Assembly (NCBI GenBank): GCA_002478945.1
Contig: DLKM01000020.1
Span: 16,335 to 80,334 of the forward strand
Length of the DNA: 64,000 nucleotides
DNA from: Christensenella sp. UBA7588
Lineage (GTDB): Bacteria > Bacillota > Clostridia > Christensenellales > CAG-917
Direction: 5' to 3'
The translations under genes and the position numbers were made by a program. Under the pieces are notes generated by a model. That model was not told the origin of the DNA. It was given only the letters and a program-made list of their open reading frames with translations, and ran no database searches. Below are positions 19,010 through 42,996 of this stretch, in pieces. Every line of letters begins with the position of its first letter. The first letter of the stretch is position 1.

Positions 19010-19038
19010 TTGTCGTGCGTTACTAATTGTGTTATACT
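19010..19038 (+). promoter_or_regulatory. candidate extended -10 promoter for the GH2 gene
   Basis: TTGTCG (19010-19015), 17 nt, TGtTATACT (19030-19038), followed by a GGAGG RBS at 19055-19059. Confidence 0.5.
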
Positions 19039-19063
19039 GTTATATATCTTTTTGGAGGAAAAT

Positions 19064-20824
19064 ATGAAAACTATCAGACTTCGCACACCATTTGAAGTAG
19101 GTTCCACTCCGCTTTCGGAGTATCCGCGTCCGCAATTTGCAAGAGACAGCTACGTCACGCTCAACGGCGAGTGGGATTACGCAATCTTGCGCAAAAGTGA
19201 AAAATTCGACGGCAAATATCAAGGCAAAATTCTCGTTCCGTTTTCTCCGGAATCCCTTCTTTCGGGACTTCCCGAAGGTACGAGAGTCACTCCGTCCGAC
19301 GTTCTTTACTATCATCGCACGTTCACGCTCGAACCTTCTTTCGTAAAAGCGCACACGGTCATTCATTTCGACGCTGTCGATATGATATGCGAGGTCAGAC
19401 TCAACGGCGTTTCCGTGGGCGAACATATCGGCGGTTACGTTCCGTTTTCTCTTGACGTTTCTTCCGTCGTAAAAGCAGGCGAAAACGTCGTAGAACTTGT
19501 CGTTACCGACCCTTGCGATACAAAGTATCACACTCACGCAAAACAATCGTCCAAACCGGGCGGAATCTGGTACACTCCGCAATCGGGCATCTGGCAAAGC
19601 GTATGGCTCGAGAGTATGGACGAAGTATATCTCAAAGACGTTACAATCGTCCCCGACATCGACCACGACACGATAAACTTCAAATTCGATAAATCCGCAA
19701 ACGAACCCGTCGACGTCATCATTATGGACGGCACGGAGGCAATCTACAGCGGCCGTTTCGACGGAGATACCGCGTCTATAAAACTCGACAAGTACGAGCT
19801 TTGGTCTCCCGAAAATCCGAAACTCTACGACGTCGCTTTCAAAATCGGAAACGACATCGTGAAATCTTACTTCGGTATGCGCAAATTCAGTTGGGTCATC
19901 GACTCGAAGGGCTACAAGCGTATGGGACTCAACAACAAGCCGTATTTCCACACGGGTTTGCTCGACCAAGGTTATTGGTCCGACGGTATGCTCACGCCTC
20001 CCTCCAACGCCGCGCTCGAATGGGACGTAAAAATGGTCAAATCGATGGGCTTCAATATGTTGCGTAAACATATCAAAATCGAGCCGCTCCGTTGGTACTA
20101 TCATTGCGACAAAGAGGGTATTCTCGTGTGGCAAGATATGGTCAGCGGCGGAAGCAAATACAATCTGTTCTACATAGGTTTGCTTGCAACCGTGTTCGAA
20201 TATCACATCAAAGACAACAACGAGTCCGGTTACAGAAAACTCGCACGCGCCGACAAAGAAGGCAGAGACGAATTTGAAAGAGAACTCAGAGTCACTATGA
20301 ATCATCTCAAAAACGTCGTTTCTCTCGCGGTATGGGTACCCTTCAACGAAGGTTGGGGACAATTCGATTCCGTTCGCATCACAAAAGAGATGAAAGCAAT
20401 CGACCCCACCCGCCTTATCGACAGCGTAAGCGGTTGGAACGACCAAGGCAAAGGCACTTCCGACACAAAGAGTTTGCACATCTACTTCAAGCCGATTTTC
20501 GTTCCCAAAAAAGACGACCGTTGCTATGTGCTTAGCGAGTTCGGCGGATACGCAATCAAGACCGAAGGACATATGTACAGCCCCAACAATCAATTCGGCT
20601 ATCGCATCTACAAAAAGCCCGAGACGATTGCGGCGGCAATCAAGAAGTTGTACGAAACCAAAATCGTTCCCAAAATCGACAAAGGTTTGTCCGCTTGCGT
20701 CTACACCGAAGTGAGCGACGTCGAACAAGAAATGAACGGTCTCGTTACCTATGACAGAAAAGTCATCAAGGTACCTGTCGATTTGATGCGCGACATCAAC
20801 AAACAACTCGTTATCAAAGATTAA
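19064..20824 (+). CDS. glycoside hydrolase family 2 (beta-galactosidase/glucuronidase-like)
   Basis: ATG at 19064 after GGAGG. EYPRPQFARDSYVTLNGEWDY start, sugar-binding/Ig/TIM-barrel order and the NEGWGQFD acid/base region. Confidence 0.8.
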   Translation: MKTIRLRTPFEVGSTPLSEYPRPQFARDSYVTLNGEWDYAILRKSEKFDGKYQGKILVPFSPESLLSGLPEGTRVTPSDVLYYHRTFTLEPSFVKAHTVIHFDAVDMICEVRLNGVSVGEHIGGYVPFSLDVSSVVKAGENVVELVVTDPCDTKYHTHAKQSSKPGGIWYTPQSGIWQSVWLESMDEVYLKDVTIVPDIDHDTINFKFDKSANEPVDVIIMDGTEAIYSGRFDGDTASIKLDKYELWSPENPKLYDVAFKIGNDIVKSYFGMRKFSWVIDSKGYKRMGLNNKPYFHTGLLDQGYWSDGMLTPPSNAALEWDVKMVKSMGFNMLRKHIKIEPLRWYYHCDKEGILVWQDMVSGGSKYNLFYIGLLATVFEYHIKDNNESGYRKLARADKEGRDEFERELRVTMNHLKNVVSLAVWVPFNEGWGQFDSVRITKEMKAIDPTRLIDSVSGWNDQGKGTSDTKSLHIYFKPIFVPKKDDRCYVLSEFGGYAIKTEGHMYSPNNQFGYRIYKKPETIAAAIKKLYETKIVPKIDKGLSACVYTEVSDVEQEMNGLVTYDRKVIKVPVDLMRDINKQLVIKD

Positions 20825-22579: not shown

Positions 22580-24163
22580 TTATTTTCTTGTTATTTTGTC
22601 AAACGTTTTTTCACAAGAATTTGTATTTTTAAAAAGAAGTCTATTTTTAGCCATTTTAATACTCAGACATGTCCAAAGAATAACACCGATATTTACTGCA
22701 AGTAGTAACGGAAAAACTATAGCGTTTACCACCTTGTCGTTTTTGCTCAACTCTTCAAATCTTATCATATGATTTAAATAACCGACAATAATGTTTATTG
22801 CCGTTGTAACAGAAAAAGCAAAGAGTATTTTGTTTCTGTTTTTTTCTCTTGAAGTACGAGCATAATTTTGTAACGGAGTAATCGAATCCACATATTCGTT
22901 GAGCAGCTTATTGATTTCAAATCTTTCTCTTAAGTAGTCATATATAGTCTCGACATCTGTTTTATTAGAAATGCTTTCAAAAACATACCTGCGTCTAAAG
23001 TTGGTATAATTAATCTCCTCTTGCCTCAATCTACACCTCAAGAACCGAGAACGAGAGAACGAATGTGCGCTATCGATTTTCATCAACTCGTTAGATAAAG
23101 AACTAAGCGCGTATTTTTGATGTAATACAAAGATGAGACAAAACCACGCAGCTTGGTCATTAATCTCCCATCTGTATGAACCGACTCTAATTAATGAATT
23201 AGACTCCGCAAATATGTATTTTGTCGCCTTTTTGCTATTGTTATATATCAAAAACTTGTCTCCGCAATATAAAGGTTGTCCATCCGTTACGGTTGCTTGG
23301 CGTATACTTTTCCCAAAATAAAATTTACTACTGTTTGCAAGTTTTATCGTAATGTAAGAAAATGGTTTTTTATCAAAAAAATCACAAAACTCGTCCTCAT
23401 TTTCATAAATTCCTTCGCTGCATCGCAAGAAAATCTTCTTTGTTACATCACATAACCATTCAAAATTCATTCTTGAGCGTATTCCGTCACAGAATTTAAC
23501 GATAAGGTCGTCGGCAACGTTAATTGTATGCCAATTAAATCTATACTTCCATTCAAAAAAACCTATTCCGGATTCAAACAGGTACAAATGCGCTTCTTCA
23601 AATTCTATTTCTAAAAACTCTTTGGCAGTTCCTTTAGGCACTTTTTCCAAAAGCATTTTATTGAGCGCATTCACCGATTCTTCATCTAACATTGATAAGT
23701 CAAATCTAAACAAACCGAACATAATAGTATTCGGCGTCTTATTCGTATTATCAAATATATCTACGATTTCAGTATGCATACGGGCATTGAGATTTATGAA
23801 AACCTCTTCGTTTTTAACATTGTTACTACGCGCACCTACGGTATTCTGTTGTTTGATAATACCATCAATATTCGAAAAATTACTGTAAATATTGTTGAAT
23901 TTTTGAGGCTCGACGTAGAATTTGAAAGGGAACACTAGCCTAACGTGATGATATTGAGCATCTACACGCCTGCAATCTAAATCGTTATTTTTTGTTCCTT
24001 CGCCGTTTGCCTCTTGAGATTGCTTAGCATCCTGACTTTCTTGTTCTTCGTTGAGTATTTGAATAATGTCAGCCGATATTACTTTTGATAGATTTTCCTT
24101 AGGACATTCTTTTGTAATTTTGACTTGCTTTGTTGATTCTTTGATTTTAGTTTTATTTCGCAT
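22580..24163 (-). CDS. CorA-like two-TM membrane protein with large unknown N-terminal cytoplasmic domain
   Basis: C-terminus NRNKILFAFSVTTAINIIVGYLNHMIRFEEL ... VVNAIVFPLLLAVNIGVILWTCL parallels the CorA TM1-(Y)GMN-loop-TM2 layout, with GMN degenerated to LNHM. It is preceded by long helical segments. Confidence 0.4.
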   Translation of the reverse strand: MRNKTKIKESTKQVKITKECPKENLSKVISADIIQILNEEQESQDAKQSQEANGEGTKNNDLDCRRVDAQYHHVRLVFPFKFYVEPQKFNNIYSNFSNIDGIIKQQNTVGARSNNVKNEEVFINLNARMHTEIVDIFDNTNKTPNTIMFGLFRFDLSMLDEESVNALNKMLLEKVPKGTAKEFLEIEFEEAHLYLFESGIGFFEWKYRFNWHTINVADDLIVKFCDGIRSRMNFEWLCDVTKKIFLRCSEGIYENEDEFCDFFDKKPFSYITIKLANSSKFYFGKSIRQATVTDGQPLYCGDKFLIYNNSKKATKYIFAESNSLIRVGSYRWEINDQAAWFCLIFVLHQKYALSSLSNELMKIDSAHSFSRSRFLRCRLRQEEINYTNFRRRYVFESISNKTDVETIYDYLRERFEINKLLNEYVDSITPLQNYARTSREKNRNKILFAFSVTTAINIIVGYLNHMIRFEELSKNDKVVNAIVFPLLLAVNIGVILWTCLSIKMAKNRLLFKNTNSCEKTFDKITRK

Positions 24164-26286: not shown

Positions 26287-26844
26287 TTACGATTGAGTTT
26301 TTGTGACATCGTTTAATAACTTTTTAATTTTTTTTATTGCTCGACTATGCTTCTTCCTTATTGTAGCAGGATTGATTCCTATTATTCGAGATATTTCGAC
26401 TTGATTATAACCCTCCCAATAAAAAAGTTTCAAAATGCGTTGAGAAACATCATCCAGTTGTCTAATCGCATAAAGTATATCCCCCGTCCATACCTCTTCG
26501 ATTTCACATTTCGCATCAAACGAATCCACATCTGAAAGGACATATTTAGATTCACAACTAATCTTTCTTTTAGCGATATTTTCACAACAAGCATAAACCC
26601 AAGCGGTAGGATACGAAACGAACCCCTGCTTTTCGGAAACAGTAATTAGTTTTATAAAAAACTCTTGCGCAATATCCCTCGATAGTTCGTACCCGTATAA
26701 ATTCTCAAAGTGATGAATAATTCTGCTATAATAAAAATCATATAGTTTTTCGATTGATTCATCACTTTCTTTTATATTGCGAAGATGGTAGTTAAATTCT
26801 ACAGGGTTCATAAACTTTCCTAACACACTTATATGGCTTTTCAT
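26287..26844 (-). CDS. ECF-type sigma-70 family RNA polymerase sigma factor
   Basis: Region 2 (DIAQEFFIKL...PTAWVYACCENIAKRK) and region 4 HTH (LFYWEGYNQVEISRIIGINPATIRKKHSRAIKKIK). The start could instead be Met12. Confidence 0.75.
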   Translation of the reverse strand: MKSHISVLGKFMNPVEFNYHLRNIKESDESIEKLYDFYYSRIIHHFENLYGYELSRDIAQEFFIKLITVSEKQGFVSYPTAWVYACCENIAKRKISCESKYVLSDVDSFDAKCEIEEVWTGDILYAIRQLDDVSQRILKLFYWEGYNQVEISRIIGINPATIRKKHSRAIKKIKKLLNDVTKTQS

Positions 26845-26928: not shown

Positions 26929-27069
26929 CGCGGTCTACGCTTCGCAAACGGCGTTTCACGCCTTTATGCTGCGCGCTTGCGACTCTCTTCACTTGCGGTC
27001 AGTCGGACTATGCAGTCCGAACAATGCAACGCATTGTTGTGCGCAATGCTTGCGCACAAATTCAAGTAT
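26929..27069. repeat. GC-rich hairpin repeat, copy A (short form)
   Basis: The 89-nt block 26981-27069 matches 29071-29159 with 8 mismatches by hand alignment. It contains three adjacent hairpins (27003-27020, 27021-27037, 27038-27058). Relative to copy B it lacks about 57 nt. Confidence 0.8.
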
Positions 27070-27089: not shown

Positions 27090-27121
27090 AAAAAGCACGG
27101 ATAAATCCGTGCTTATTTTTG
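27090..27121. terminator. bidirectional rho-independent terminator (ends the RNase III/peptide operon on the minus strand)
   Basis: AAGCACGG-ataaat-CCGTGCTT with A-rich 5' and T-rich 3' flanks. Confidence 0.75.
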
Positions 27122-27258
27122 TGTGTGCCAATACCTATTTGATACATTTTGCGTACATCTCTTAAAAAGCGCGTACAGTTTGTTCAAAATACGTACAGCA
27201 GAACTATTATGTTTTATTGTTATTATTCTCTGTTATTGCAAGTGTTATTTGCTATCAA

Positions 27259-27423
27259 CTACTTCTTGTGTCCTTGATAGTTCTTATTGTTTGGATTGCA
27301 TTGGTTAGAGCGGTTATTTTGATTAGCTCTATATGCCGAATTGTTAGGATTGTTTTGATTCGAATAATTGTTTATCTGCTGTTGCGTATGTGTTTTGCCG
27401 CTAACGCCATTTTGTTTACTCAT
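27259..27423 (-). CDS. 54-aa Asn/Gln-rich peptide with tandem SNQxNPNNxxY motif, translationally coupled to RNase III
   Basis: The ATG at 27423 overlaps the RNase III stop (ATGAGTAA), with a GGAGG 7 nt upstream. MSKQNGVSGKTHTQQQINNYSNQNNPNNSAYRANQNNRSNQCNPNNKNYQGHKK has 16 N and 8 Q of 54 residues. Confidence 0.6.
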   Translation of the reverse strand: MSKQNGVSGKTHTQQQINNYSNQNNPNNSAYRANQNNRSNQCNPNNKNYQGHKK

Positions 27424-28246
27424 TGACGTCTTCCTCCTTGAATTCATCAGGTATCCCGTAGTAATCGCAAAGGACTAAGTAGGCGGCATACCTTTTGGCT
27501 TCCTTCTTTGAAGTAGCGAGCCCAGTGTGGTACATAGACCAGCTTCTGATGTGGCATGTGCAAGACCACCAATATTTGCCATTTTGATACACCTGTTCCT
27601 CAGGAATATCATATTCAGGTACCGAGCATCTTCCGTGTTCCGCCAGCTCCTTTAGTGTGGTGACCGCATTTTCAAGTTTGAATTTATCTGGTCTTTCTTC
27701 TTCGGTGTCTACATCTTGTAAGAAATCTTCGATTTGTAGCATAAATTCAACAGAGTTTTGCAACTCATCAGGGTTCCAGTCGCTATCGATTGCAATCGCG
27801 CCTAGTATCGCCTCAAATAAATCAGCTTTGACTTTTTCTTGCTTTTCAACATGGTTATCGATATCGCTATCGCCCATATACATGTATTTTGCAAAGCCAA
27901 GTCTGTCTATTCTTTTAGCCAATGTCTTATTGGATACAATTTCTTTTTTCAGTTCGGTAAAATCCGCTTCATCCTTATGAGCTACAATGCAATATTCATC
28001 GTTGTCGTTCTCTTCGTCGTAATAATCTGATTGAGATTTTACGAAGCCGAATCTATCAGAGATAACTTTTACAACATAAAAATCCAAAACCTTATCGCCT
28101 AGAAATTCTAAAACCTCGTTATTCTCTCCACCGTATTGCGTAGAATAAGAGCTTCTTGTGAACGCTTGAAGCAATAGGTCGGTATTATTGAACCAGTAGC
28201 CAATTTTCTTTTGCACTTCGTCTAAATGATCGTTTAAGTTTTGCAT
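27416..28246 (-). CDS. ribonuclease III family protein (island-encoded, non-housekeeping context)
   Basis: RNase III signature NEVLEFLGDKVLD and second catalytic segment KADLFEAILGAIAIDS. C-terminal dsRBD-like ...LATSKKEAKRYAAYLVL. AGGAGGA RBS. Confidence 0.8.
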   Translation of the reverse strand: MQNLNDHLDEVQKKIGYWFNNTDLLLQAFTRSSYSTQYGGENNEVLEFLGDKVLDFYVVKVISDRFGFVKSQSDYYDEENDNDEYCIVAHKDEADFTELKKEIVSNKTLAKRIDRLGFAKYMYMGDSDIDNHVEKQEKVKADLFEAILGAIAIDSDWNPDELQNSVEFMLQIEDFLQDVDTEEERPDKFKLENAVTTLKELAEHGRCSVPEYDIPEEQVYQNGKYWWSCTCHIRSWSMYHTGLATSKKEAKRYAAYLVLCDYYGIPDEFKEEDVNE

Positions 28247-28269
28247 TTGTGTTTCCTCCTAAATGTATA

Positions 28270-28472
28270 TTTCTGTCCTAAGGAAACAAAAAAGACCTTC
28301 TACCGACAGGGTAAACTCCTCCTAACCAGAGTCCTCCCATGCAAAGGTCTAATTTAATCAAAACAATTTTTGTAAGATTTTCTACTTGATGCCTCCCGCT
28401 TGCAAAAGGCATTAAACAGATCACATTACTCAACTCCTTTGAGGAAACTAATCCTTCCTTTTCGGACAGAAA
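28270..28472 (-). promoter_or_regulatory. ~200-nt structured 5' leader of the RNase III gene with an internal terminator-like hairpin
   Basis: Closing helix TTTCTGTCC (28472-28464) / GGACAGAAA (28278-28270), extended by AAGGAA/TTCCTT. Internal hairpins CTCAA-AGGAG-TTGAG and ATGCCT-N12-AGGCAT. AGACCTT...AAGGTCT+TTTTTTG at 28350-28286. Four SD-like GGAG(G) copies. Confidence 0.5.
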
Positions 28473-28473
28473 A

Positions 28474-28502
28474 AGTATACCACAAATCTCCTATAAAATC
28501 AA
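28474..28502 (-). promoter_or_regulatory. candidate extended -10 promoter for the RNase III leader
   Basis: On the minus strand: TTGATT (28502-28497), 17 nt, TGgTATACT (28482-28474). It abuts the leader closing helix, so the true 5' end is uncertain. Confidence 0.4.
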
Positions 28503-28879: not shown

Positions 28880-29159
28880 GGTGCGGTCACCGAGACTTGT
28901 AGCGAACAAAGTGAGCGTAATAGCGAGCGGCGTAAGTTTACTGACCGTAGCGAGCGTCTCCATAAGATAAACGGTGTTTCACGCCTTTATGCTACGCAAT
29001 AAAACACTTCGTATTAAGTTTGTCTTATTATGTCCACTGCGCTCGATTTCCGCAAATGATACGCGTTTGCGGCTCGCTTCACTTGCGGTCAGTCGGACGG
29101 TGCCGTCCGAACAATGCAATGCATTGTTGTGCGCAATTCTTGCGCACAAGTTCAAGTAT
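28880..29159. repeat. GC-rich hairpin repeat, copy B (long form)
   Basis: Shares ACGG(C/T)GTTTCACGCCTTTATGCT(G/A)CGC and the 89-nt triple-hairpin block with copy A. Its middle part (29000-29083) matches copy C (29258-29341) at about 80% by eye. Confidence 0.8.
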
Positions 29160-29206: not shown

Positions 29207-29372
29207 GGTGCGGTCTATGCTGCGCAAATGGCGCATCCGCGCCTGCGTGCAGTCGCACGCAACACTTCGTTTTTTATTTGCTTGCTATGTCCACTACGCT
29301 CGATGGCCGCAAATGCTACGCGCTTGCGTCTCTCTTCGCTTGTGGTCACCGAAGTCTCGGCACCCTGCACAC
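29207..29372. repeat. GC-rich hairpin repeat, copy C (divergent)
   Basis: Starts GGTGCGGTCTATGCTGCGCAAATGGCGCA (compare copy A 26929-26958) and carries its own short GC hairpins, e.g. GCGTGC-agtc-GCACGC. It is directly tandem to copy B. Confidence 0.7.
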
Positions 29373-29547: not shown

Positions 29548-30405
29548 TCACTCATCTACTTGCTCGTAATAATAAGAGTAGTCGATTCCTTTCATGAAGA
29601 TTTCGCGATTGTTTATATCGTTGGTCAATGCACCTTTTATAAGTTCGTAAATATGCGATGAATCCACAGGACTTTCCTGCATTGCCGTAAGGTAAGCCTT
29701 TTTGTCGATTTTGCTCCAATCAACGCACTTTTTTAGATGCTTTTTCAAAATCAAATCAAGCCAAATACGCGTACTTCTGCCATTACCTTCCATAAACGGA
29801 TGCGCAACGTTCATCTCGACGTATTTGTCTACGATTTGTTCAAGCGTATCGTCGGGCATATTCTCAATTTGGCGCAAATTTTCTTGCAAATACATTGCCG
29901 GCGCAAACGCAAAACCGCCCTTTGCTATATTCATTGTGCGGATTTGTCCTGCAAAATCATACAGTCCACCGAAAATATACGCGTGTATTTGTTGCAAGCC
30001 TTTTACTGTGCCGACTTCGATTTCGTTTATCATACCCGACTCGAACAATTCGTACGCTTTTTTCTTGCTTTTATCATCAATTGACGATCCCATTCCCTTC
30101 AACCACTTCTCGAACACGAGTGATTTTTTGCTAGGAATAAGTGCAATAATGGTATTTACACCCTCTTCATCAACGACGTCAGTCATATATTTTTTGCCGT
30201 CGGAAGCGGTCAATTTCAGTTGTCGACAAATTGTCGACAACTCGCCTTTTCTACGTTTGAGAGCGTTCCAATATGAGCGCGGATTTGTGCTTTTTGTGAG
30301 TGCTTCCGCAATATCCGTAGCGCAAAACCACCATTTGGAAGTATCTTCATCCCAAACGGCTCTTACGGGTATATCTTCAAAAAAACGAATCGACGTTTTG
30401 ATCAC
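29548..30405 (-). CDS. BRO-N domain / Fic (AMPylase-type) fusion protein
   Basis: N-terminus [29 protein letters not shown] is BRO-N/antirepressor-like. The canonical Fic motif [12 protein letters not shown] lies at 29802-29767. The C-terminal [10 protein letters not shown] resembles a class III inhibitory helix. GTG start with an AAGGA RBS. Confidence 0.75.
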
Positions 30406-30996: not shown

Positions 30997-31425
30997 TTAT
31001 GATCGCCCATAATGTTTCATCATTTCAATTCTGACATTTTCAAGTTGTGTGGCCAATGGAATTAATCGATTAACATCATTAGACAACTTTCCGTACTGTT
31101 TATCAATATTTCTTTGATAGCTATCAACTGTTCCATATAAAAAATCTATGTAGCCTTTATGCACCCAATAATTTCTAATTTCTTTTATCCCATTAAGTAA
31201 AGTATAATCATCTCGGCTCAAATATGGTGATTCATCACTAAAATCCAACTCTTCAAGTTTTTTCAACACGGAGCCAAGAGGTTTATTGATTACGGTATCA
31301 AGATTATTAGAAAAATCACCTCGCAACATACCTGCATACATAATTTTTATGTCATGCTCAATGCATTGACACTTTTTTATTAGAATCCCCATCATTTCAT
31401 CAAACAATTCTTTTGTAACAAACAT
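30997..31425 (-). CDS. HEPN-like protein (candidate RNase; Rx4H motif)
   Basis: EIRNYWVH (R..H codons at 31176-31159) fits the HEPN phi-RNxxxH motif in a predicted all-helical ~140-aa protein. The likely start is the ATG at 31425 after GAGGAG (the track start is 31452). Confidence 0.45.
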   Translation of the reverse strand: MFVTKELFDEMMGILIKKCQCIEHDIKIMYAGMLRGDFSNNLDTVINKPLGSVLKKLEELDFSDESPYLSRDDYTLLNGIKEIRNYWVHKGYIDFLYGTVDSYQRNIDKQYGKLSNDVNRLIPLATQLENVRIEMMKHYGRS

Positions 31426-31524
31426 TTTATATATCTCCTCAACCAATAACATTATATATTTAATTCAAATATTATCGGCATACTTAAACCAGTCCGCTTT
31501 CATCACATAAAATACTAGACACTA

Positions 31525-32599: not shown

Positions 32600-33145
32600 A
32601 TGGGAAATATCAGTATAGTTATCGGTTCTTGGGGTTCATACAACGAATGCAACGAAAGAGCCTTAGGCTCTAATTGGCTTGACTTATCGGACTACAACGA
32701 TTGGGAAGAAATCGTTGAAGAGCTCAAACGCGAAGGTTTTGAATTGGACGGTATAGACGAAGAATTGTTTATACAAGACATCGAAGGCATATCAGACCGT
32801 TCTGTCAATTGGGATTATATGAATCCCGAAAACCTATTCAACACGCTTTACGAATCGGGCGTCCTTACCAACGATTATAAATATAAAGAACTTTGCGCTT
32901 TCCTTGAAGTTAAAAACTATGACGATTTTGAAGAACTTGTAAAAAACCGCGGTGAGAATTGGGACGATAACGTCAACCTTTGGAGTGGTTTTACTTGGGA
33001 AGATTACGGAAAAGAAATGCTGGACTGTTGCGGATATAACATCCCCGAACACCTATTAGACTTTTTTGACCTTGAACGCTATGGCAAATACTGTGGCGAT
33101 TACAACGTTTACGAATGCGAAAACGGCTTAATTGAAATTTATTAA
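32600..33145 (+). CDS. ardA: ArdA-family antirestriction protein
   Basis: Very acidic. IGSWGSYNECNERALGSNWLDLS, EELFIQDIEG and C-terminal ERYGKYCGDYNVYECENGLIEIY parallel the Tn916 ArdA segments LGKYNEGELVGAWF / EEYAIHDYE / AYGRDL...NHGIFEIVY. Confidence 0.7.
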   Translation: MGNISIVIGSWGSYNECNERALGSNWLDLSDYNDWEEIVEELKREGFELDGIDEELFIQDIEGISDRSVNWDYMNPENLFNTLYESGVLTNDYKYKELCAFLEVKNYDDFEELVKNRGENWDDNVNLWSGFTWEDYGKEMLDCCGYNIPEHLLDFFDLERYGKYCGDYNVYECENGLIEIY

Positions 33146-34537: not shown

Positions 34538-35473
34538 ATGGAACTCAATTTAATCGCTCAAAATAAGCAAGAAGAACTTGTCTTGAAATACCTTCAAGAT
34601 AATGCGAGCGACGTCCTTGTGAACAAGATAAACAATGGTACTCCGTTTGAAAAAGACGGCAAGAAACTTACAAACAAAAAGACGCTTTCGAGCTTTATAA
34701 AATATGCATTTAATAATGCACAGGAACTTTCCGAAAAAGGCGCGATTGCTGCTTGTATAGATAGCGATACCGTCTTTGGTTGGGCAATCCATTTCTTTGA
34801 AGAAGATAACATCGTAGGAACACTTTATAACGATGACGGAACGGAATATAAGCCCGTTATTAAACACGTTCAAAACACCACTATTAAACCAAAACCACAA
34901 CCGCAAAAACCGAATGATATTCAGTTCTCTATATTTGATGATTTGACCGAACAAGAAGTTAAAGATACCGAAATAGAAGAATTAAATACTATTACGGAAA
35001 AACATAGCAATATGGAAAAATCCGAAACACAAATTGAAAAACCTTCTAAAAGCAAATCTCCAAACTCTACATTTTACGATAAATATCTTGTTTTGCAACA
35101 GCAAAATCCAAAGAGCGCAGTTGCATATAGGCTTGGTGATTTCTATGAGATTTTAGGTGAAAATGCCGTTGAGATTGCAAGAGAAATAGACCTTACTTTG
35201 ACAAGCCGAGATTGCGGATTGGAAGAACGTATGCCTATGATTGGATTCCCTTATCACGCAGCGGAAATCTATTTTGCGAAGATTGCAAAAACACATAATT
35301 TGCTTGTTGTAGAAACTGATGGAACGACAAGACGAATTGAACAAATCCCCAACAAAAATGAACGCATCGTGGATGCTGAAACGGGCGAGATTTTAGGCGA
35401 AGTTTTAGAGCCAAACGATAGTGTTATTTCAAAGTTGTTTGAGATATTTGGAAACACGTTGGAGGTGCAATAA
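34538..35473 (+). CDS. PcfK-like (AcrIIA9-family-like) N-domain fused to an orphan MutS domain-I-like mismatch-binding domain
   Basis: aa 1-100: ...SSFIKYAFNNAQELSEKGAIAACIDSDTVFGWAIHFFEED, PcfK-like from memory. aa ~178-262: YLVLQQQNPKSAVAYRLGDFYEILGENAVEIAREIDLTLTSR...MPMIGFPYHAAEIYFAKI closely parallels the E. coli MutS N-terminus ([24 protein letters not shown]...LTKR...PMAGIPYHAVENYLAKL). Confidence 0.65.
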   Translation: MELNLIAQNKQEELVLKYLQDNASDVLVNKINNGTPFEKDGKKLTNKKTLSSFIKYAFNNAQELSEKGAIAACIDSDTVFGWAIHFFEEDNIVGTLYNDDGTEYKPVIKHVQNTTIKPKPQPQKPNDIQFSIFDDLTEQEVKDTEIEELNTITEKHSNMEKSETQIEKPSKSKSPNSTFYDKYLVLQQQNPKSAVAYRLGDFYEILGENAVEIAREIDLTLTSRDCGLEERMPMIGFPYHAAEIYFAKIAKTHNLLVVETDGTTRRIEQIPNKNERIVDAETGEILGEVLEPNDSVISKLFEIFGNTLEVQ

Positions 35474-35474
35474 A

Positions 35475-36785
35475 ATGAAAATCGAAAAGATAAAACCTAT
35501 CCCGAAATATATCGAAAAGAAAATCAAAGCGATTGATAAGGCATATCCCGTTCGTGGTAGGACTCGTTTTTACGCTTACCTCACAAGGAATGACGGCGAA
35601 CTTGTCAAAGTTACAGTTGCCGTAAAAGAGAAAAAGAACAAATGGTGTTGCAAACAAGTTGCTGTGCACGGTGTCCATTCTGATAAATGCTATGTAAAAG
35701 ATATGGAATTTACATATGTTGGCGGATACATTGTCGGTTGGTATGCAGAAGGTTTTGTAAAACGCCGACCTTGGTACGAGGACGGCTGTTGGGGATGGAC
35801 TGATGACAAATTGTTTGACCCTTACGCCCCGATAGTAAACAGAGATTATATTTTGCAACATTTTCCCGAATACAAGTACAGCGCAGTTGATAGTTATACC
35901 GGCATAGACGTTTTCAAATATTTACGGCTTTACGAACAATACCCACAAATCGAGTATTTAACAAAACTCGGATTGCATAATCTCGCAATGTCAAAACAAA
36001 TATTGAAATTGTGCGGAAAAGACAAGCGTTTTAGAAAATGGCTTGCACAAAACAAAAACACATTAAACAAATCATCGTTATATATTCCGGTTGTCTTGCA
36101 AGCATATAAAAAGAACTTAAACGTGTTGGAATTGCAAACATATTATTCCGCAAAACTCAAATTGAGCAAGGACTGGTTGCTTGAACCTTTACGGATTGCG
36201 TTTAAGAACGACTTTGAAACGCTTATTCGGTATCTCACAAATAAGGAAACAAACGCTTACACATATTGGGATTATTGGACTGCTTGCACGAATCTCGGCT
36301 TGGATATGAACGAGGGAAAGAATCGTTATCCTCACGATTTTAAACGTTGGCACGATATACGAATAGACGAATATCATACCTTGCAGGCAAAGGAAGATGA
36401 GCAGAAGCGTAAAGACCTCTATGAAAAATTCGCAAAGGTTGCCGAAAAGTATCTCGCACTTCAATACGAAAAGAAGGCGAATTACGTCGTCATTATTGCG
36501 CATAACCCAAATGAACTTGTTGTCGAAGGACGAGCCCTTGAACATTGTGTAGGGCGGATGAATTACGACCAAAAGTTTGCAAGAGAAGAATCCCTTATTT
36601 TCTTTATCCGTACAAAAGAACATCCCGACGTTCCGCTTGTGACGCTTGAATACTCGCCATCCAAAAAACGAGTTCTTCAATGTTATGGGAAGAAAGACAA
36701 CAAACCAAATGACAGCATTTTGAATTTTGTAAACAAAAAATGGCTGCCGTTTGCAAACAGACAAATCAAAAAACTTGCTGCATAA
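35475..36785 (+). CDS. PcfJ-like protein
   Basis: ATG at 35475 after GGAGGTG. The C-terminal EGRALEHCVGRMNYDQKFAREESLIFFIR...PLVTLEYS...VLQCYGKKDNKP matches the PcfJ-domain pattern. Confidence 0.65.
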   Translation: MKIEKIKPIPKYIEKKIKAIDKAYPVRGRTRFYAYLTRNDGELVKVTVAVKEKKNKWCCKQVAVHGVHSDKCYVKDMEFTYVGGYIVGWYAEGFVKRRPWYEDGCWGWTDDKLFDPYAPIVNRDYILQHFPEYKYSAVDSYTGIDVFKYLRLYEQYPQIEYLTKLGLHNLAMSKQILKLCGKDKRFRKWLAQNKNTLNKSSLYIPVVLQAYKKNLNVLELQTYYSAKLKLSKDWLLEPLRIAFKNDFETLIRYLTNKETNAYTYWDYWTACTNLGLDMNEGKNRYPHDFKRWHDIRIDEYHTLQAKEDEQKRKDLYEKFAKVAEKYLALQYEKKANYVVIIAHNPNELVVEGRALEHCVGRMNYDQKFAREESLIFFIRTKEHPDVPLVTLEYSPSKKRVLQCYGKKDNKPNDSILNFVNKKWLPFANRQIKKLAA

Positions 36786-37405: not shown

Positions 37406-38218
37406 TTATTTTCCCAAGATTCCGTCAAGCGGTGTAAGATGCCACAAATCAACGAGTCCTTGCAATACGTCATCGCCGATTTCGTTGACGACGTGTCCCA
37501 ATGTGAGAATATATAGTTGTGCCGTTTTCTCAACAGTTTCAATAAGTCCGAAGGCTTCGTCAATGTCTTTGCCAACGCCGTAAATGCCGTGATTCGTCCA
37601 TACGACAAGACGATATTTCTTCATCTTCTCTGCCGTCGCCTCACCGATTTCGTTCGTTCCGCAAACCATACAAGGCAACACGCCTACACCGTCCGGGAAC
37701 ACCACGATTGCTTCGGTGTTGTTGCGCCACAACTTTTCGGTAAACACTCTGTCGTCTGTTTTTACGACTGCCGACATACAAATCGTATAAGTCGGGTGTG
37801 TGTGCATAACGACTCTGTGATTGGGATCTATTTTCAAACGAGTTGCGTGCGTCATAAGGTGCGCGGGAAGTTCACTCGTGAATTTTCCGCCGTCCTTATA
37901 TCCCCACAAAAGTTCTGCCGTTTTGCCGTCTGCGCCGATACGGATTATACCGAGATTGGTTTCGGGATCGCCTTCAACATTCTTGAAATACTTGCCCGTT
38001 CCCGTCACGATAAAATATCTGCCGACCAACTCTTTTGCATCGAATCCGGTCGGGATAACGCGCAATACCTTGTCAGTATCGAGATACTCTTTCACTTGTT
38101 CTTCGTCGAGCAATACGGAAACATTTCCGCCGTTTCTCTCGTCCCAGCCTTGACGATACATATTGCTCGTAATTTTGCAAAGTTCTTTTACAAACGGTGC
38201 TTCAAGTATGTTTTTCAT
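37406..38218 (-). CDS. rhaD: rhamnulose-1-phosphate aldolase
   Basis: Class II aldolase motifs (GWDERNGGNVS, HTHPT). ATGA overlap with rhaA. Confidence 0.85.
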   Translation of the reverse strand: MKNILEAPFVKELCKITSNMYRQGWDERNGGNVSVLLDEEQVKEYLDTDKVLRVIPTGFDAKELVGRYFIVTGTGKYFKNVEGDPETNLGIIRIGADGKTAELLWGYKDGGKFTSELPAHLMTHATRLKIDPNHRVVMHTHPTYTICMSAVVKTDDRVFTEKLWRNNTEAIVVFPDGVGVLPCMVCGTNEIGEATAEKMKKYRLVVWTNHGIYGVGKDIDEAFGLIETVEKTAQLYILTLGHVVNEIGDDVLQGLVDLWHLTPLDGILGK

Positions 38219-39450
38219 CTTTTGCTAAGCACTCCTTTTTCGTAGTCTTTTATTTCGTCAAACCAATCGTCTTTCATACCTTGTCTGTCGAGATACTCTT
38301 TCCAAACTTCGCCGAAAGGATAGGTTTTGAGTTGTTCTTGTCTGTACATAAGTTCGGTAAACTCGCCGTTGTCCTGCAACTTTTTGAGCGCGTCGTTTGG
38401 CGTGAGCAATGCGTAAAGCAACGCCTTTTGCATATTGCGCTCACCAGTAACCCACGCAGATATACGGTTTATGGACGCATCGAAATAGTCAAGACCGATA
38501 AGCACCTTGTCAAGCGCGTCGTTTCTTACAATCTCTTTTGCAATCTCTTTGAGTTCGTCTTCAAACAAAACGACGTGGTCACTGTCCCATCTCACTCCGC
38601 GCGTTACGTGAAGTGCAACTTTATCGTAGAACGCAAGCAACGCAGGGATTTTGTCGCTGACGTATTCGAGCGGATGATAATGTCCGTTGTCAAGCAAACA
38701 GCAAATATCGTTCTTTGCCGCATAGTTCTGATAAAACTCGTTGCTACCCACCGTATAACTTTCAACGCCTATACCGAACACCTTGCTTTCCACCGCAACG
38801 ACAACCTTTTTCTTGTCATAAGGTTCTTTCAAAATCTCGTCAAGGCTTTCTTTAAGACGAAGTCTTGGGGTAAGTCTGTCCGCGGGAACGTCCTTAAAAC
38901 CGTCGGGAATCCAAATATTCATAAGACAATGGCTGTTCATTTCATTTGCGAAATACTCGGAAATGCGAATACACGCCTTGCAATGCTCAATCCAGAATTT
39001 GCGCACGTTTTCATCGGGTGACGAAAGCGTAAGTCCGCCCTTTACCATCGGGTGCGAGAACATCGTGGGATTGAAATCGATTCCGTCAAGTCCTATCTCT
39101 TTTGCAAACTCAACCCACGGCGCAAAATGTTCGGGACGATATGCGTTTCTGTCCACTTTCTCGCCGTTAAGAATTGCATAACTTGCGTGCAAGTTGAGCC
39201 TTTTCTTGCCCGGCATAAGCGAAAACGCTTTTGTCAAATCTTCTTTGAGTTCTTCAAAGTTTCTTGCACGCCCCGGGTAATTGCCCGTCGTTTGAATACC
39301 GCCCGACGCAGCACCTCCGCCGTCAAGACCTACAACGTCGTCGCCTTGCCAACAATGCACCGAGATTGCGGTATTTTTAAGTTTTTCAATCGCTTGCTCC
39401 GTGTCCACGCCTATCTTTGCGTAAACTTCTTTCGCTTCTTGATAACTCAT
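38215..39450 (-). CDS. rhaA: L-rhamnose isomerase
   Basis: SVHCWQGDDVVG, LNLHASYA and WDSDHVV motifs characteristic of RhaA. Confidence 0.9.
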   Translation of the reverse strand: MSYQEAKEVYAKIGVDTEQAIEKLKNTAISVHCWQGDDVVGLDGGGAASGGIQTTGNYPGRARNFEELKEDLTKAFSLMPGKKRLNLHASYAILNGEKVDRNAYRPEHFAPWVEFAKEIGLDGIDFNPTMFSHPMVKGGLTLSSPDENVRKFWIEHCKACIRISEYFANEMNSHCLMNIWIPDGFKDVPADRLTPRLRLKESLDEILKEPYDKKKVVVAVESKVFGIGVESYTVGSNEFYQNYAAKNDICCLLDNGHYHPLEYVSDKIPALLAFYDKVALHVTRGVRWDSDHVVLFEDELKEIAKEIVRNDALDKVLIGLDYFDASINRISAWVTGERNMQKALLYALLTPNDALKKLQDNGEFTELMYRQEQLKTYPFGEVWKEYLDRQGMKDDWFDEIKDYEKGVLSKR

Positions 39451-39453
39451 AGT

Positions 39454-40761
39454 TTATAACTCCATTTGGCTTTTCAAATTGCCTATCGCCGTTGCCTCTA
39501 TGGGCATTGCGACGACTTCTTTGTTTGTAAATTCTCTTGTAAATTCGTTGACCAACTTGTTGTTTGCGCCACCGCCTACGATATAGATTTTATCGAACGT
39601 ACGATTTTCGCATTTTTCCAAATCGTCAACTGCTTTTTTATATCCCATTGCCATAGACCTATACGCACTGCGATACAAGTCCCCTTCCGTTTTAGGCGCA
39701 TTGAGATTGCGACTTTCAAACCAATTCCTGATTTTCTTGTCCATATTTTCGGGCAAAGAAAACTCTTTTGCGTTGACGTCGAACGTACCGTCAAACGTGC
39801 TTTCGCTTGCAAGGCGCGTCATCTCGTCAAAACTTCTGCCGAACACGTTTTTAAGGCACACGTTTATCCACATACCCGTGATATTCTTCAAGAAACGGAA
39901 ATTTCCCACTCCGCCTTCGTTTGCGAAATTGTATCTCAAAGCATCTCTCGACACGTTTGCTTCTTTTATCTTTGCGCCGAGAATTGCCCAAGTTCCGCTC
40001 GAAATAAGCGCGCTATTTTCGGGGTTGTCAACGGCATAAAACGCACTTGCCGTGTCGTGCGACGGACAGAGTTTAACCGTCGTTTGTCCGCCTACTTCTT
40101 TTGCAACGTCGTCTTTAAGTTTTCCGACAACCGTTCCCGGCATATTGAGCGACGGAAACATTTGAAGCGGTAAACCGAGAGTCCCTATAAGGTCTATGTC
40201 AAACTTTCTCGTTTTGCAGTTCACAAGTCCCGTTGTCGTTGCGTTCGTATATTCCTTCACCATATTGCCCGTAAGCAAATAGCCAAAGTATTCGGGCATC
40301 ATAAGGAACGTCGAAACGCCGTCCAAACGACCGCTCTTTTTATCCGCATAAAGTTGATACACTGTGTTGAAAGACTGAAATTGTATGCCCGTGCGCATAT
40401 AGAACGTTTCAAACGAAATCTTTGTGTTTATCTCTTCGATTGCACTCTCCGTTCTCGAATCTCTATACGCATAGCAAGGCAACACAGGTTTGCCGTCTTT
40501 TATGAGAACGTAGTCCACGCCCCACGTATCTATTGCAAGGCTCTCAATACTCTCATATTGCGAAAAAGCAACTTTAAGTCCTTTTTTAATCTCGTTAAAC
40601 AGTCTTTTCGTATCCCAAACGAGATGTCCGCCTTTATTGTCCATATGATTTTCAAAGCGGTATATCTCTTTGGTTTTTATCTCTCCGTCTTCTTTCCAAC
40701 CGACGATATGTCGTCCGCTGGATGCTCCGAGATCTATTGCAAGATAATACTTGTTGTCCAT
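39454..40761 (-). CDS. rhaB: rhamnulokinase (FGGY family)
   Basis: YLAIDLGASSGR and IYIVGGGANN FGGY motifs. The ATG at 40761 is preferred over the track's TTG at 40773. Confidence 0.85.
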   Translation of the reverse strand: MDNKYYLAIDLGASSGRHIVGWKEDGEIKTKEIYRFENHMDNKGGHLVWDTKRLFNEIKKGLKVAFSQYESIESLAIDTWGVDYVLIKDGKPVLPCYAYRDSRTESAIEEINTKISFETFYMRTGIQFQSFNTVYQLYADKKSGRLDGVSTFLMMPEYFGYLLTGNMVKEYTNATTTGLVNCKTRKFDIDLIGTLGLPLQMFPSLNMPGTVVGKLKDDVAKEVGGQTTVKLCPSHDTASAFYAVDNPENSALISSGTWAILGAKIKEANVSRDALRYNFANEGGVGNFRFLKNITGMWINVCLKNVFGRSFDEMTRLASESTFDGTFDVNAKEFSLPENMDKKIRNWFESRNLNAPKTEGDLYRSAYRSMAMGYKKAVDDLEKCENRTFDKIYIVGGGANNKLVNEFTREFTNKEVVAMPIEATAIGNLKSQMEL

Positions 40762-40776
40762 ATACTTCCCCAAGTT

Positions 40777-42996
40777 TTACATTTCGTCTATTGCAAACGA
40801 ACGCTTGCCTTGAACCGTTTCGATTTTACCGTTAGGAAAAACGAGAACGCACTCAAAGCCTTGAACGTCCACATTCAGACTGATATGTTTATTGACTCTT
40901 TCCCAGTCAATCGATATGCTTTTGCCACCGCGTGCATAAGCAATGTTTGCGCTGTTTACGCCATCGATAAGTATCGGTTTTATTCTTATCGAATTGCTAT
41001 CTACCACGTCGAGCCAACCGATGTTCTTATAGAACCACGCAAGAATTGCGCCCCAAAAATGGTGGTTGAAAGACGGAATTCGTTTCATACCGTCTTTTCT
41101 CATTTTTTTGCCGTCAATGACTTCGTACTCCTCAAAACTTTCCCACAAAGTCGTTGCGCCCTGTTCTATCCAATAGCCGTATGACGGGAAACTCTTTTGC
41201 GTAATAAGTTTGAAACACAAATCGATGTCGCCGTGTTTTACAAGCGTATCGAACAAATACTTATATCCCACAACGCCGACTCTGAAATGGTCGTCTTGTC
41301 CGTGAATAAGGTCAATCAAGTCACGGTATGCGTTGATGCTCTCGTCATTTGTCAATACACCAGTTTGAAGAGCCATTGCAAGCACCGTTTGTGTTTTCAC
41401 GACAAGTCTATCGTCTCTCACGTATTTCTTGCGGAAATCGCGTTTAAGACGTTTTGCAAAGTTTTCTATTTTATCGGTAGGCAATTCGACTGCATCAAAC
41501 ATTTTTATCGTCTTTGTCGCGATGTCAATCATCGTCAAAGAGTCGGTGATTTCCACAGGCGTTTCAAAATCGCCTTCGTTTTTCGTGTATGTTTGAACCC
41601 AATCACCCAAGCCGAAATTTGCCAAGCCGTCTGCGTTCAAACGTGTCGTGACATAATCGAAATATTTGCTTATCGCTTCGGCATTGTCTTTTACAACCTT
41701 TTCATCGCCGTAAAAACGATAAAGTTGATACGGCAATTCAACAATCACACTATCCCAAGCAGGTCCGTTTCCGAAATCGAAGCCCCAACCTGCCGTCGGA
41801 ATAATTCCAGGCAAAGCGCCGTTTGCTTTTTGAACGTTGCGAATTTGAAGCAACCATTGTTCAAGACTTGCCTTTGCATCGAACGTGTAAAGCATTTGCT
41901 CTGCACTAATCGAAGCATCCGCCGTCCAACCGTTCTTCTCTCTTTGCGGGCAATCGTATGGATAGTAAACGAAATTGCTTATATCACTTTGAAGCGTCAT
42001 TTGGACAAGTTTATTTACAGTTTCGTTGTCGCATTTGAAATCACAAACCTTAGGCAAATCACTGTGGGTAGAAACAAACTCAACTGTGTCGAGCGTTGCT
42101 TGTTCGTCTTTTAATCCGCAAACTTCGCAATATCTGAAACCGTGCCAAGTGAAACTCGGCAAATAACTTTGTTCACCGCTTCTACAAACGTACACGTCGT
42201 GTTGATTGTAACCGTCAACGGTTTTATCAAAAGAAATACTGCGATAATCGATGCTACCGTCTTCGCAAATCTCTTCCGCAAAGTACATATCGATACGTTG
42301 TCCTTCTTCTGCATTTTGCAAATGAAGCAAGCAAAGTCCCGTATCGTTTGCGCCGAAGTCATACAAATATCCGTTCGGCGTTTTCTTCAAACATACGGCT
42401 TTTTTAGGCTTACCTTCGACAATCGGTTGAACTTTATTCTCTACAATTTTACCTTTTGGGGCATCTGCCAAAATCGCTTTTTCAAAACCGCTTAAATCGG
42501 TATCGGTCAAAACGCCTTTTCTTTCCAAACGTGCGTCATAACGCTCTCCGCAACGGAAATCGTCAAAAGTAATCGGGCTGTCTATCGCAACAAACGTTTC
42601 GTCCGTTTCAAGCAATACTTTGCCGTTTGCACTTATATTCAATGCAAATTTAGGTGCGCTACGATAAGGCGCGGACTCATTGAGCCAAATATCCGAATCG
42701 TTGGTGTTGACAAATCCGTTTCCAAGCAACACACAAAGAACGTTGTTTTCTTTTTTGAGTTTATTTTCAATATCGTAAACGTCGTAAACAACAACTTGGT
42801 CGGGGTTGCTCATATAAGGCGCAAACAAACTCTTATTGAGTTCTTCCCCGTTCAAAAACAATCTATAAAGACCGACTGCTACAATCGTCAGTTTTGCGTT
42901 TTTAGAATTATCACAATCAAATACACGCTTAAAAAGCGGCGCATTTACGTGCCTTTCTATAGTGTTGTATTCCTTTGATCGTGCAATAAATTTCAT
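40777..42996 (-). CDS. alpha-L-rhamnosidase (GH78)
   Basis: About 740 aa with a six-hairpin region (YPYDCPQREKNGWTADA) typical of GH78. Leads the rha operon. Confidence 0.8.
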   Translation of the reverse strand: MKFIARSKEYNTIERHVNAPLFKRVFDCDNSKNAKLTIVAVGLYRLFLNGEELNKSLFAPYMSNPDQVVVYDVYDIENKLKKENNVLCVLLGNGFVNTNDSDIWLNESAPYRSAPKFALNISANGKVLLETDETFVAIDSPITFDDFRCGERYDARLERKGVLTDTDLSGFEKAILADAPKGKIVENKVQPIVEGKPKKAVCLKKTPNGYLYDFGANDTGLCLLHLQNAEEGQRIDMYFAEEICEDGSIDYRSISFDKTVDGYNQHDVYVCRSGEQSYLPSFTWHGFRYCEVCGLKDEQATLDTVEFVSTHSDLPKVCDFKCDNETVNKLVQMTLQSDISNFVYYPYDCPQREKNGWTADASISAEQMLYTFDAKASLEQWLLQIRNVQKANGALPGIIPTAGWGFDFGNGPAWDSVIVELPYQLYRFYGDEKVVKDNAEAISKYFDYVTTRLNADGLANFGLGDWVQTYTKNEGDFETPVEITDSLTMIDIATKTIKMFDAVELPTDKIENFAKRLKRDFRKKYVRDDRLVVKTQTVLAMALQTGVLTNDESINAYRDLIDLIHGQDDHFRVGVVGYKYLFDTLVKHGDIDLCFKLITQKSFPSYGYWIEQGATTLWESFEEYEVIDGKKMRKDGMKRIPSFNHHFWGAILAWFYKNIGWLDVVDSNSIRIKPILIDGVNSANIAYARGGKSISIDWERVNKHISLNVDVQGFECVLVFPNGKIETVQGKRSFAIDEM

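Follow-up and report, generated by a model that had tools for sequence, protein, structure and literature searches.

A probable cargo cassette of mobile elements with an accessory RNase III, a structured leader and a small Asn/Gln-rich protein

The window analysed here, 64,000 nucleotides of contig DLKM01000020.1 from Christensenella sp. UBA7588, carries two overlapping open reading frames (ORFs), taken from the ORF listing: one at 27416..28246 for an RNase III of 276 aa, and one at 27259..27423 for a small basic, Asn/Gln-rich protein of 54 aa (called the peptide here). The two ORFs share the start/stop overlap ATGAGTAA (27416-27423), in which the ATG of the peptide precedes the TAA of the nuclease; an initial annotation of the sequence had described this overlap. 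We favour, with moderate confidence, the reading that both genes belong to a moron-type, autonomous cargo cassette of mobile elements, which is neither a housekeeping rnc nor an obligate two-protein system. The cassette measures approximately 1.3 kb and is made of a predicted promoter, a leader of approximately 220 nt with a predicted intrinsic terminator, the nuclease and the peptide. Its carriers would be temperate phages, serine-recombinase elements and islands derived from integrative and conjugative elements (ICEs) in anaerobic gut and digester Firmicutes. All features of the cassette lie on the (-) strand, and coordinates are window positions.

The nuclease, its leader and the shared DNA unit

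The 276-aa protein contains both catalytic segments of RNase III that had been reported for it, EVLEFLGDKVLD from residue 44 and KADLFEAILGAI from residue 140. The catalytic residues E44, E47, D51, D142 and E145 are all present; in the family alignment (A2) E44, E47, D51 and E145 are each at least 90% conserved, and D142 is the consensus residue. The initial annotation had called for Pfam searches with both kinds of model. The Ribonuclease_3-type models matched (Ribonuclease_3, PF00636, 58.7 bits; Ribonucleas_3_3, PF14622, 63.8 bits; both above the cut-off), and the dsrm model for the double-stranded RNA-binding domain (dsRBD) gave no match to the window nuclease at E≤0.01. On a relative (L049; surveyed loci carry L numbers) dsrm scored 21.9 against a cut-off of 23.

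The dsRBD-like tail proposed earlier was recovered by four other approaches. The alignment to TIGR02191, the rnc equivalog model, spans positions 59-213 of 219. A profile of the nuclease family searched against the PDB found the full-length Thermotoga RNase III (1o0w) with E=1e-25, the Campylobacter, E. coli and Aquifex enzymes across nuclease domain and dsRBD, and the dsRBDs of RNase III, TARBP2 and Loqs. The AlphaFold2 model has a mean predicted local distance difference test score (pLDDT) of 90.4 and shows the C-terminal domain as α-β-β-β-α (helices at residues 191-203 and 247-263 with three strands between them). The top Foldseek matches of this model are the full-length E. coli and Aquifex RNase III. 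By sequence and predicted fold, the protein is a class-1 RNase III with a catalytic domain, a dsRBD and intact catalytic carboxylates, and it would be an active endonuclease on double-stranded RNA (dsRNA). Mini-III, which has the RNase III domain only, lacks a dsRBD and measures approximately 140 aa, was ruled out by the length of 276 aa and the dsRBD.

The protein shares with the bacterial class-1 enzymes of E. coli, Aquifex aeolicus and Thermotoga maritima the NExLEFLGD signature, the second Asp/Glu pair, the dsRBD and a superposable predicted fold. It differs from canonical Rnc in an acidic insertion of approximately 24 aa after the signature helix (residues ~67-90) and in an acidic C-terminal tail. 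It also differs in where it is found, since it is carried on mobile elements with a conserved leader of its own and without rnc-era or smc-ftsY synteny. The score against TIGR02191 is 109.7 bits, below the cut-off of 166.25. Searches of PLSDB and INPHARED with tblastn returned no close relative of the nuclease; the matches were canonical rnc genes at approximately 25% identity (the value for annotated rnc on PLSDB plasmids), with the phage rnc genes of INPHARED at 24-31%. The family itself is large: a word-indexed search gave 3,526 matches, and 186 clusters at 50% identity had E<1e-30. Its members measure from 260 to about 400 aa.

The evidence for a travelling unit comes from comparisons at the DNA level. 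When loci with unrelated flanks were compared by blastn, the shared DNA ran from 27202 or 27234 to 28468 or 28590 of the window at 79-97% identity, and the homology to relatives in other contexts stopped at 27234 or 27202. Copies with 96-97% DNA identity lie in a prophage, in the ArdA/PcfJ/PcfK island of the window and beside tet(M)-like genes. There is no conserved synteny, and loci that are 96-99% identical have different neighbours (prophage, ICE-like island, tet(M) region, groES/EL). On a 249-kb human-gut contig (L098, 99% protein identity), the cassette follows a tail protein and holin and precedes a helix-turn-helix (HTH) gene and large serine integrases. Serine recombinases (family F0) were identified in 42 of the 72 loci surveyed. 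One nuclease protein, P0086, occurs with identical sequence in four contexts; in two of these its neighbour is a tet(M)-type gene of 639 aa, accompanied by Tn916-like int/xis or by an erm-type methylase. Viral contigs of IMG/VR contain 37 RNase III-like loci and 70 peptide loci. Pfam scans of the 64-kb window found no second rnc. The gene is an accessory RNase III paralog borne by islands and mobile genetic elements and very probably not the housekeeping rnc. The earlier remark that it does not sit in a housekeeping context is borne out by the missing rnc-type synteny, the score below the equivalog cut-off and the near-identical copies in unrelated contexts.

Resistance-type genes adjoin several leader-bearing RNase III-like genes (L002 3306-5225, L004 680-5226, L114 3788-4336). 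One is the 639-aa gene for a ribosomal-protection protein of the tet(M) type, another encodes an erm-type methylase (RrnaAD), and the third is an ORF of 182 aa. ORFs of 167-182 aa also lie 3' of other nuclease relatives, and from the sequence alone we read them as lnu-like nucleotidyltransferases.

The upstream end of the cassette is formed by a promoter-like site (TTGATT, 17 nt, TG-n-TATACT; 28474..28502), a consensus-level prediction from a consensus scan. The first conserved base of the leader (GUCCG, 28467) lies approximately 7 nt downstream of the predicted -10 element. Two sequence-divergent clades have differing -35/-10 pairs at equal distance from GUCCG. The conserved, structured 5' leader of 221 nt (28247..28467), identified by covariation, shuffling and nhmmer, contains three predicted elements. 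A long imperfect hairpin occupies ~28356-28443, and a terminator hairpin with a U-run, predicted as an intrinsic terminator, occupies 28288-28350. The 5' end (GUCC(G), 28463-28467) is paired with (A)GGAC, located directly past the U-run at 28275-28279. The Shine-Dalgarno (SD) sequence of the nuclease, AGGAGG (28255-28260), is also part of the leader.

An alignment of 16 leaders supported 46 predicted pairs. Compensatory changes affect 11 of these, among them pairs of the terminator stem and the inner hairpin. The minimum free energy of the leader is -64.6 kcal/mol (z=-3.43), and none of 200 shuffled sequences folded as well. In distant relatives, AGACCUU/AAGGUCU is swapped for AGCCUAU/AUAGGCU and the stem is kept. 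Near and distant leaders aligned together were too divergent to yield a consensus fold. Each of the 75 nhmmer matches of the leader immediately precedes an RNase III-like gene, with protein identity as low as 44%; in the related loci and the window, none was found before any other partner of the peptide or elsewhere. The leader is present whether or not a peptide gene follows and so tracks the nuclease, not the peptide. Rfam gave no match at the gathering score, and the matches at E≤10 were at chance level. On this sequence evidence the leader is a candidate new cis-regulatory RNA.

In E. coli, rnc is autoregulated through a hairpin of the rnc leader. The leader of the cassette resembles it in being long and structured, with an extended imperfect hairpin, and is here exclusive to the RNase III gene. 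It has no sequence relation to the E. coli leader, and it adds an intrinsic terminator and a helix that closes the 5' and 3' ends. By analogy with E. coli rnc, we infer that the leader confers autoregulation combined with attenuation. The nuclease would probably feed back on its own leader, where the imperfect hairpin of approximately 30 bp resembles an RNase III substrate, and the leader terminator would add attenuation.

The downstream end of the cassette (27202..27258, from the blastn breakpoints and the listing of flanks) includes the motif AATAACACTTGCAA (27236-27249). In relatives, the flank listing shows another terminator directly after this motif, unlike in the window copy. Here, an intrinsic-terminator-like hairpin is predicted at 27093..27114 (9 bp followed by UUUAUUUU), approximately 145 nt past the peptide stop, and it is likely to be the end of the transcription unit. 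The structured leader and self-contained layout suggested by the initial annotation are matched by a conserved leader, a promoter-like site and a predicted terminator.

Phage morons are autonomous promoter-gene-terminator units inserted between phage genes. The cassette is like them in being a discrete unit of 1.3 kb with a predicted promoter and terminator of its own, sharp homology breakpoints and differing flanks in different elements. In relatives, a prophage carries it with the lysis genes on one side and the integrase module on the other. Unlike morons, it is also found outside prophages, in the ICE-like island and in tet(M)/erm/lnu-type regions.

The small protein and its family

Asn accounts for 16 of the peptide's 54 residues and Gln for 8, and the peptide lacks Asp and Glu. 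It carries two repeats, SNQNNPNNSAY (residues 21-31) and SNQCNPNNKNY (residues 39-49), so that the composition and the two SNQxNPNNxxY copies noted initially are correct. Its homologs align over the full length, with invariant T11, H12 and Q16 and the NQxNPNN units; the pattern can be described as T-H followed by two NQxNPNN-x-x-Y units. AlphaFold2 models the peptide with moderate confidence (pLDDT 75) as three short helices separated by NPNN turns. Pfam, NCBIfam, PHROGs, PADLOC and the PDB contain no match to the peptide. A permissive Pfam scan of 29 diverse family members, a sequence-profile search of the PDB and a Foldseek search with the model also found nothing.

The ORF is a real gene under purifying selection, as judged from sequence comparison. 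Among the copies linked to the nuclease, synonymous divergence is near saturation (pS 0.45-0.9), nonsynonymous divergence is low (pN 0.03-0.18), and pN/pS is 0.05-0.3. A strong SD sequence lies 6-10 nt ahead of nearly all peptide copies. In the window it is AAGGAGGAA (27431..27439), placed within the final codons of the RNase III ORF, with its GGAGG core (27433-27437) ending 9 nt ahead of the ATG; the initial annotation was right to place a GGAGG inside the nuclease end and gave the distance as 7 nt. When distinct nuclease 3' ends were compared, 13 of 14 with a peptide behind them had a GGAGG-type SD, with the acidic tail encoded by GAG-GAG-type codons. The SD was present in 2 of 11 ends scored as peptide-less, most of which use GAA-type Glu codons. 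One of these two (L113) bears an H12L variant of the peptide that the motif search had missed. The SD is therefore selected, as GGAGG is kept with the peptide and mostly replaced by GAA codons without it. Together with pN/pS and the near-saturated pS, the retained SD upholds the earlier view that the small ORF is truly coding.

The peptide family is far wider than its association with RNase III. A single-sequence search gave 90 clusters and a profile search at least 2,662, all unnamed or called 'hypothetical' and without a Pfam model. A 605-aa 'member' (P0363) was rejected as a clustering artefact. We surveyed the context in 80 genome loci from Clostridia, Bacilli and Acholeplasmatales/Tenericutes, and also from Treponema metagenome-assembled genomes. 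In at least 33 of 78 peptide copies, the preceding ORF on the same strand ends -29 to +40 nt from the peptide gene, and these upstream genes are of at least 10 unrelated kinds. Pfam matches above the cut-off identified RNase III-like proteins (L019, L049), HNH proteins of ~104-148 aa (PF01844; L009, L026, L046), HsdS specificity subunits (L021, L034), Thg1-like proteins (L045, L069), an AAA_15/AAA_21 protein (L059), a Radical SAM protein (L025) and HTH_3 proteins of 330-420 aa (L022, L055). TdeIII-like partners (L012, L013) scored below the cut-off.

A further partner is a protein of 210-230 aa with a GS...DxD motif of the Pol-beta nucleotidyltransferase type, assigned by the motif and weak PADLOC matches (L033, L035, L053). 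This is the commonest non-nuclease partner (also L036, L044, L048, L067, L162 and L174). The G-S...D-x-D residues are invariant, the weak PADLOC matches are to oligonucleotide cyclases, and the PDB search gave no match. In L174, this protein occupies the RNase III slot in an otherwise similar element.

Many copies stand alone. Christensenellaceae have one in a syntenic position. A 62-aa form that ends in an acidic tail is flanked by TerL and a ParB-methyltransferase, and a further copy follows a repressor-like gene adjacent to a serine integrase. In siphophage-like prophages, forms of 66-82 aa have the major-tail/tail-chaperone genes on one side and the tape-measure gene on the other. These longer forms have a common N-terminal module and an acidic-aromatic C-terminus (GWCDD or PYDFD; L166-L182, L164, L178 and L184 from IMG/VR), and one was also seen in [Ruminococcus] torques ATCC 27756 (L095). 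The initial annotation had asked whether homologs of the peptide are always adjacent to an RNase III. Mostly they are not, given the unrelated upstream genes and the stand-alone copies. Across contexts, a comparison of the DNA around the peptide ORF showed conservation of the SD and the ORF only, so the peptide gene is not a mini-transposon.

Elsewhere, the peptide gene is followed by an asparagine synthetase gene approximately 390 nt downstream (L009-L011 5568-7148) or by groES-groEL (L005-L008 7262-9172); both adjacencies are probably coincidental. Asn, Asp, His and Tyr are the four amino acids read by queuosine-modified tRNAs, and they make up 37% of the residues of the peptide family (127 distinct genes in related loci). 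The partners include a radical-SAM protein of 264 aa and the Thg1-like proteins, which are related to tRNA-His; this may be coincidence. A codon-usage test of the idea that the peptide is a sensor of NAY codons found no bias.

The island around the cassette

The cassette lies in an AT-rich stretch of the window at ~22-37 kb, where GC is 0.33-0.40 compared with 0.44-0.48 in the flanks, and the accessory island proposed earlier on this ground stands. The borders are a GH2 gene (19010-20824) and rhamnose-catabolism genes (37406-42996). The island contains genes for ArdA antirestriction protein (32600-33145), a PcfK-like/MutS_I protein (34538-35473) and a PcfJ-like protein (35421-36785), all on the (+) strand. 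They are a typical leading-region set of conjugative elements. The island is ICE-derived or ICE-like; an integrase was not found within ~22-37 kb.

The other neighbours are on the (-) strand. A Bro-N and Fic protein (29548-30405) matches the PADLOC candidate PDC-S04 with E=1.5e-136, and a 527-aa protein with a CorA-like C-terminus (22580-24163) matches PADLOC CorA with 2.6e-9. An ECF-type (extracytoplasmic function) sigma factor gene (26287-26844) is followed by genes for two uncharacterised proteins of 396 and 225 aa, which are possibly secreted or membrane-bound. A 151-aa protein (30997-31452) without a family match contains the invariant motif E-x-R-N-x-W-x-H-K, which is HEPN-like (Rx4H). 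The HEPN assignment comes from the motif; neither the PDB nor Pfam supported it. One homolog (L049 3856-4275) lies 6 nt past an RNase III-peptide pair and another (L234 5323-5748) near an RNase III-like gene, and a third (L249) has no RNase III within 3 kb. The protein thus co-occurs with RNase III in three loci and is found in a fourth without it, which makes the link weak.

GC-rich direct repeats of ~125-190 nt bracket the cassette (26946-27069 and 28969-29159), with a third, partial copy at 29261-29348. They hold internal palindromes, for example TTGTGCGCAAT(G/T)CTTGCGCACAA. The initial annotation had counted these hairpin repeats as part of the cassette. No further copy was found in the window and none in 248 related loci, so we regard them as genome context. 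In the window, the stretch from the peptide to the terminator holds three TGTACG motifs spaced 20 nt apart (27152-27197). In the clade of 76-80% nuclease identity, five to six direct repeats of ~21 nt, (A/G)GGGTGCGT... and ending AATTGTATTAAAATAGGT, are located after or before the cassette (L001 ~1500-1640; past the peptide in L110; upstream of the nuclease in L125). Contigs often end at these repeats, which resemble iterons or transposase-binding end repeats.

Possible roles of the cassette

In the reading that we favour, the cassette supplies its mobile element with an extra, probably self-regulated dsRNA endonuclease. The nuclease would probably serve the element by cutting sense/antisense or structured RNAs. 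The candidate targets are RNAs of the element itself (for example adjacent recombinase transcripts), of the host or of competing phages, and the RNA parts of defence systems. The peptide would be co-translated from the 3' end of the cassette. Its role is most likely autonomous and generic, plausibly that of a small basic mobile-element protein that binds nucleic acids or acts as a modulator, and less that of an antitoxin or a dedicated RNase III subunit. Its charge, its nearly always nucleic-acid-related partners and its stand-alone copies in phages argue for such a role.

Several points weigh against this reading. The promoter and the terminators are predictions from consensus or covariation, and self-cleavage of the leader is drawn from the analogy with E. 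coli rnc. Within 10 kb, the window cassette is accompanied by neither a recombinase gene nor phage structural genes. The coupling of the two genes and the SD are retained across 71-99% nuclease identity, so a functional interaction in this clade is conceivable. Electrostatic binding is also plausible between the strongly acidic nuclease and a peptide that is free of acidic residues.

An unlikely alternative, which still deserves some weight, is anti-phage defence or counter-defence. Here, RNase III would destroy dsRNA of incoming phages or RNA of host defences, with the peptide as a sensor, safety catch or accessory. The cassette occupies a moron slot beside prophage integrases, its window neighbours include the Fic/Bro-N protein (PDC-S04), the CorA-like protein and ArdA, and several partners of the peptide are of the defence-island type (HsdS, AAA_15, HNH, HTH_VI/CapH-like). 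There is also a precedent in the fusions of HEPN, RNase III and dsRBD that were described and proposed as RNA-based defence (PMC3710099). These fusions and phage rnc genes are likewise RNase III borne by conflict systems or viruses, but the window nuclease has no HEPN fusion. However, the PADLOC-DB v2 models match neither protein (a spurious match at 0.027 for the nuclease, none for the peptide). Searches of the literature by motif string, and for RNase III linked to defence, prophages or mobile elements, found nothing that describes an RNase III-peptide pair; the fusions above were the one relevant item. Guilt by association is also weak for genes that pile up beside integrases.

The initial annotation had proposed a dedicated, stoichiometrically tied pair. 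The peptide would then be a specific subunit of the nuclease (inhibitor, activator or RNA-binding adaptor) made in fixed proportion by translational coupling. We consider this rather improbable, and by the refuting condition that the annotation itself had set the proposal is not upheld. The peptide gene follows directly in 22 of 35 nuclease relatives (71-99% identity); the start/stop overlap is 8 nt in the clade of at least 85% identity, and the 76-80% clade has a 3-nt gap instead. The SD retained where the peptide is present, the strong purifying selection on the peptide and the opposite charges of the acidic nuclease tail and insertion and the peptide are consistent with such a pair. However, the peptide is absent from approximately 12 of the 35, among them the widespread P0086. 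These nucleases keep NEVLEFLGD and KVKADLFEA and the same acidic tail and insertion. The leader follows the nuclease and not the peptide, and most members of the peptide family have other upstream partners or none.

A more speculative proposal, and a doubtful one, extends the defence idea to the whole peptide family. In conflict systems of mobile elements, the T-H...NQxNPNN proteins would act as a new and hyper-promiscuous component, a generic, small and basic modulator such as a labile safety catch or a nucleic-acid-targeting adaptor, and would form, with the leader-autoregulated RNase III, a dsRNA-directed module of defence or counter-defence. With no greater assurance, the peptide can be imagined to plug in behind operons for RNase III, HNH, Thg1-like, nucleotidyltransferase-like, AAA_15 and HsdS proteins.

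The tandem serine-recombinase genes that many relatives carry directly 5' of leader and nuclease suggest another role, retroregulation like that of lambda sib, which is very unlikely here. Hairpins in transcripts that read through from the recombinase genes would be cut by the RNase III of the element, and integration or excision would be controlled in this way. The order HTH, small ORF, ~436-aa serine recombinase, ~526-aa serine recombinase, leader and RNase III was seen in more than 20 loci that range from 44% to 80% in nuclease identity, always in one orientation. In L217, only ~75 nt separate the recombinase stop from the leader. Against this, the leader has its own promoter-like site, other relatives carry the cassette upstream of the recombinases, and the window cassette has no recombinase near it.

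Promiscuous antitoxin domains such as PanA are known, and they provide an analogy for the peptide only. Like them, the peptide is one small conserved product joined by short overlaps to many unrelated upstream enzymes. The peptide has no homology to such domains, many of its copies stand alone, its partners include non-toxins (HsdS, HTH regulators) and the nucleases survive without it. A toxin-antitoxin or addiction module, in which RNase III is the toxin and the peptide a labile antitoxin, or the reverse, is highly improbable. What would fit this idea, which the initial annotation had also raised, is a mobile two-gene layout with a stop/start overlap, in which the second product is small, probably partly disordered and similar to labile antitoxins. 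Peptide-less nucleases with intact active sites are widespread, however, and neither toxin-antitoxin nor defence profile models matched. In L099, the peptide has a nonsense codon beside an intact nuclease. In L139, the nuclease is split by an IS66-like insertion, and in L131 it lacks the promoter, the leader and the first 102 codons; the peptide is intact in both. As each gene is found without the other, or damaged beside an intact partner, addiction and strict co-dependence are both argued against. Finally, that the nuclease is an ordinary housekeeping rnc lying in an AT-rich stretch is hardly credible in spite of its full RNase III architecture, given the sub-threshold equivalog score, the low identity to canonical rnc, the missing synteny and the near-identical copies in unrelated contexts and on viral contigs.

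The usual view of RNase III is that of one housekeeping enzyme. The family described here appears as a whole to be travelling cargo: in Firmicutes of gut and digesters its members ride on prophages, serine-recombinase elements and regions with resistance genes, with a leader specific to the family. The implication is that mobile elements import their own capacity to process dsRNA, which would bear on antisense-RNA control, on phage-host RNA conflict and possibly on the control of integration. The peptide belongs to a very large, unannotated family of small proteins, a translationally coupled 3' rider of unrelated nucleic-acid enzymes that is also found alone in phage modules. This family is a candidate new class of small proteins of phages and mobile elements.

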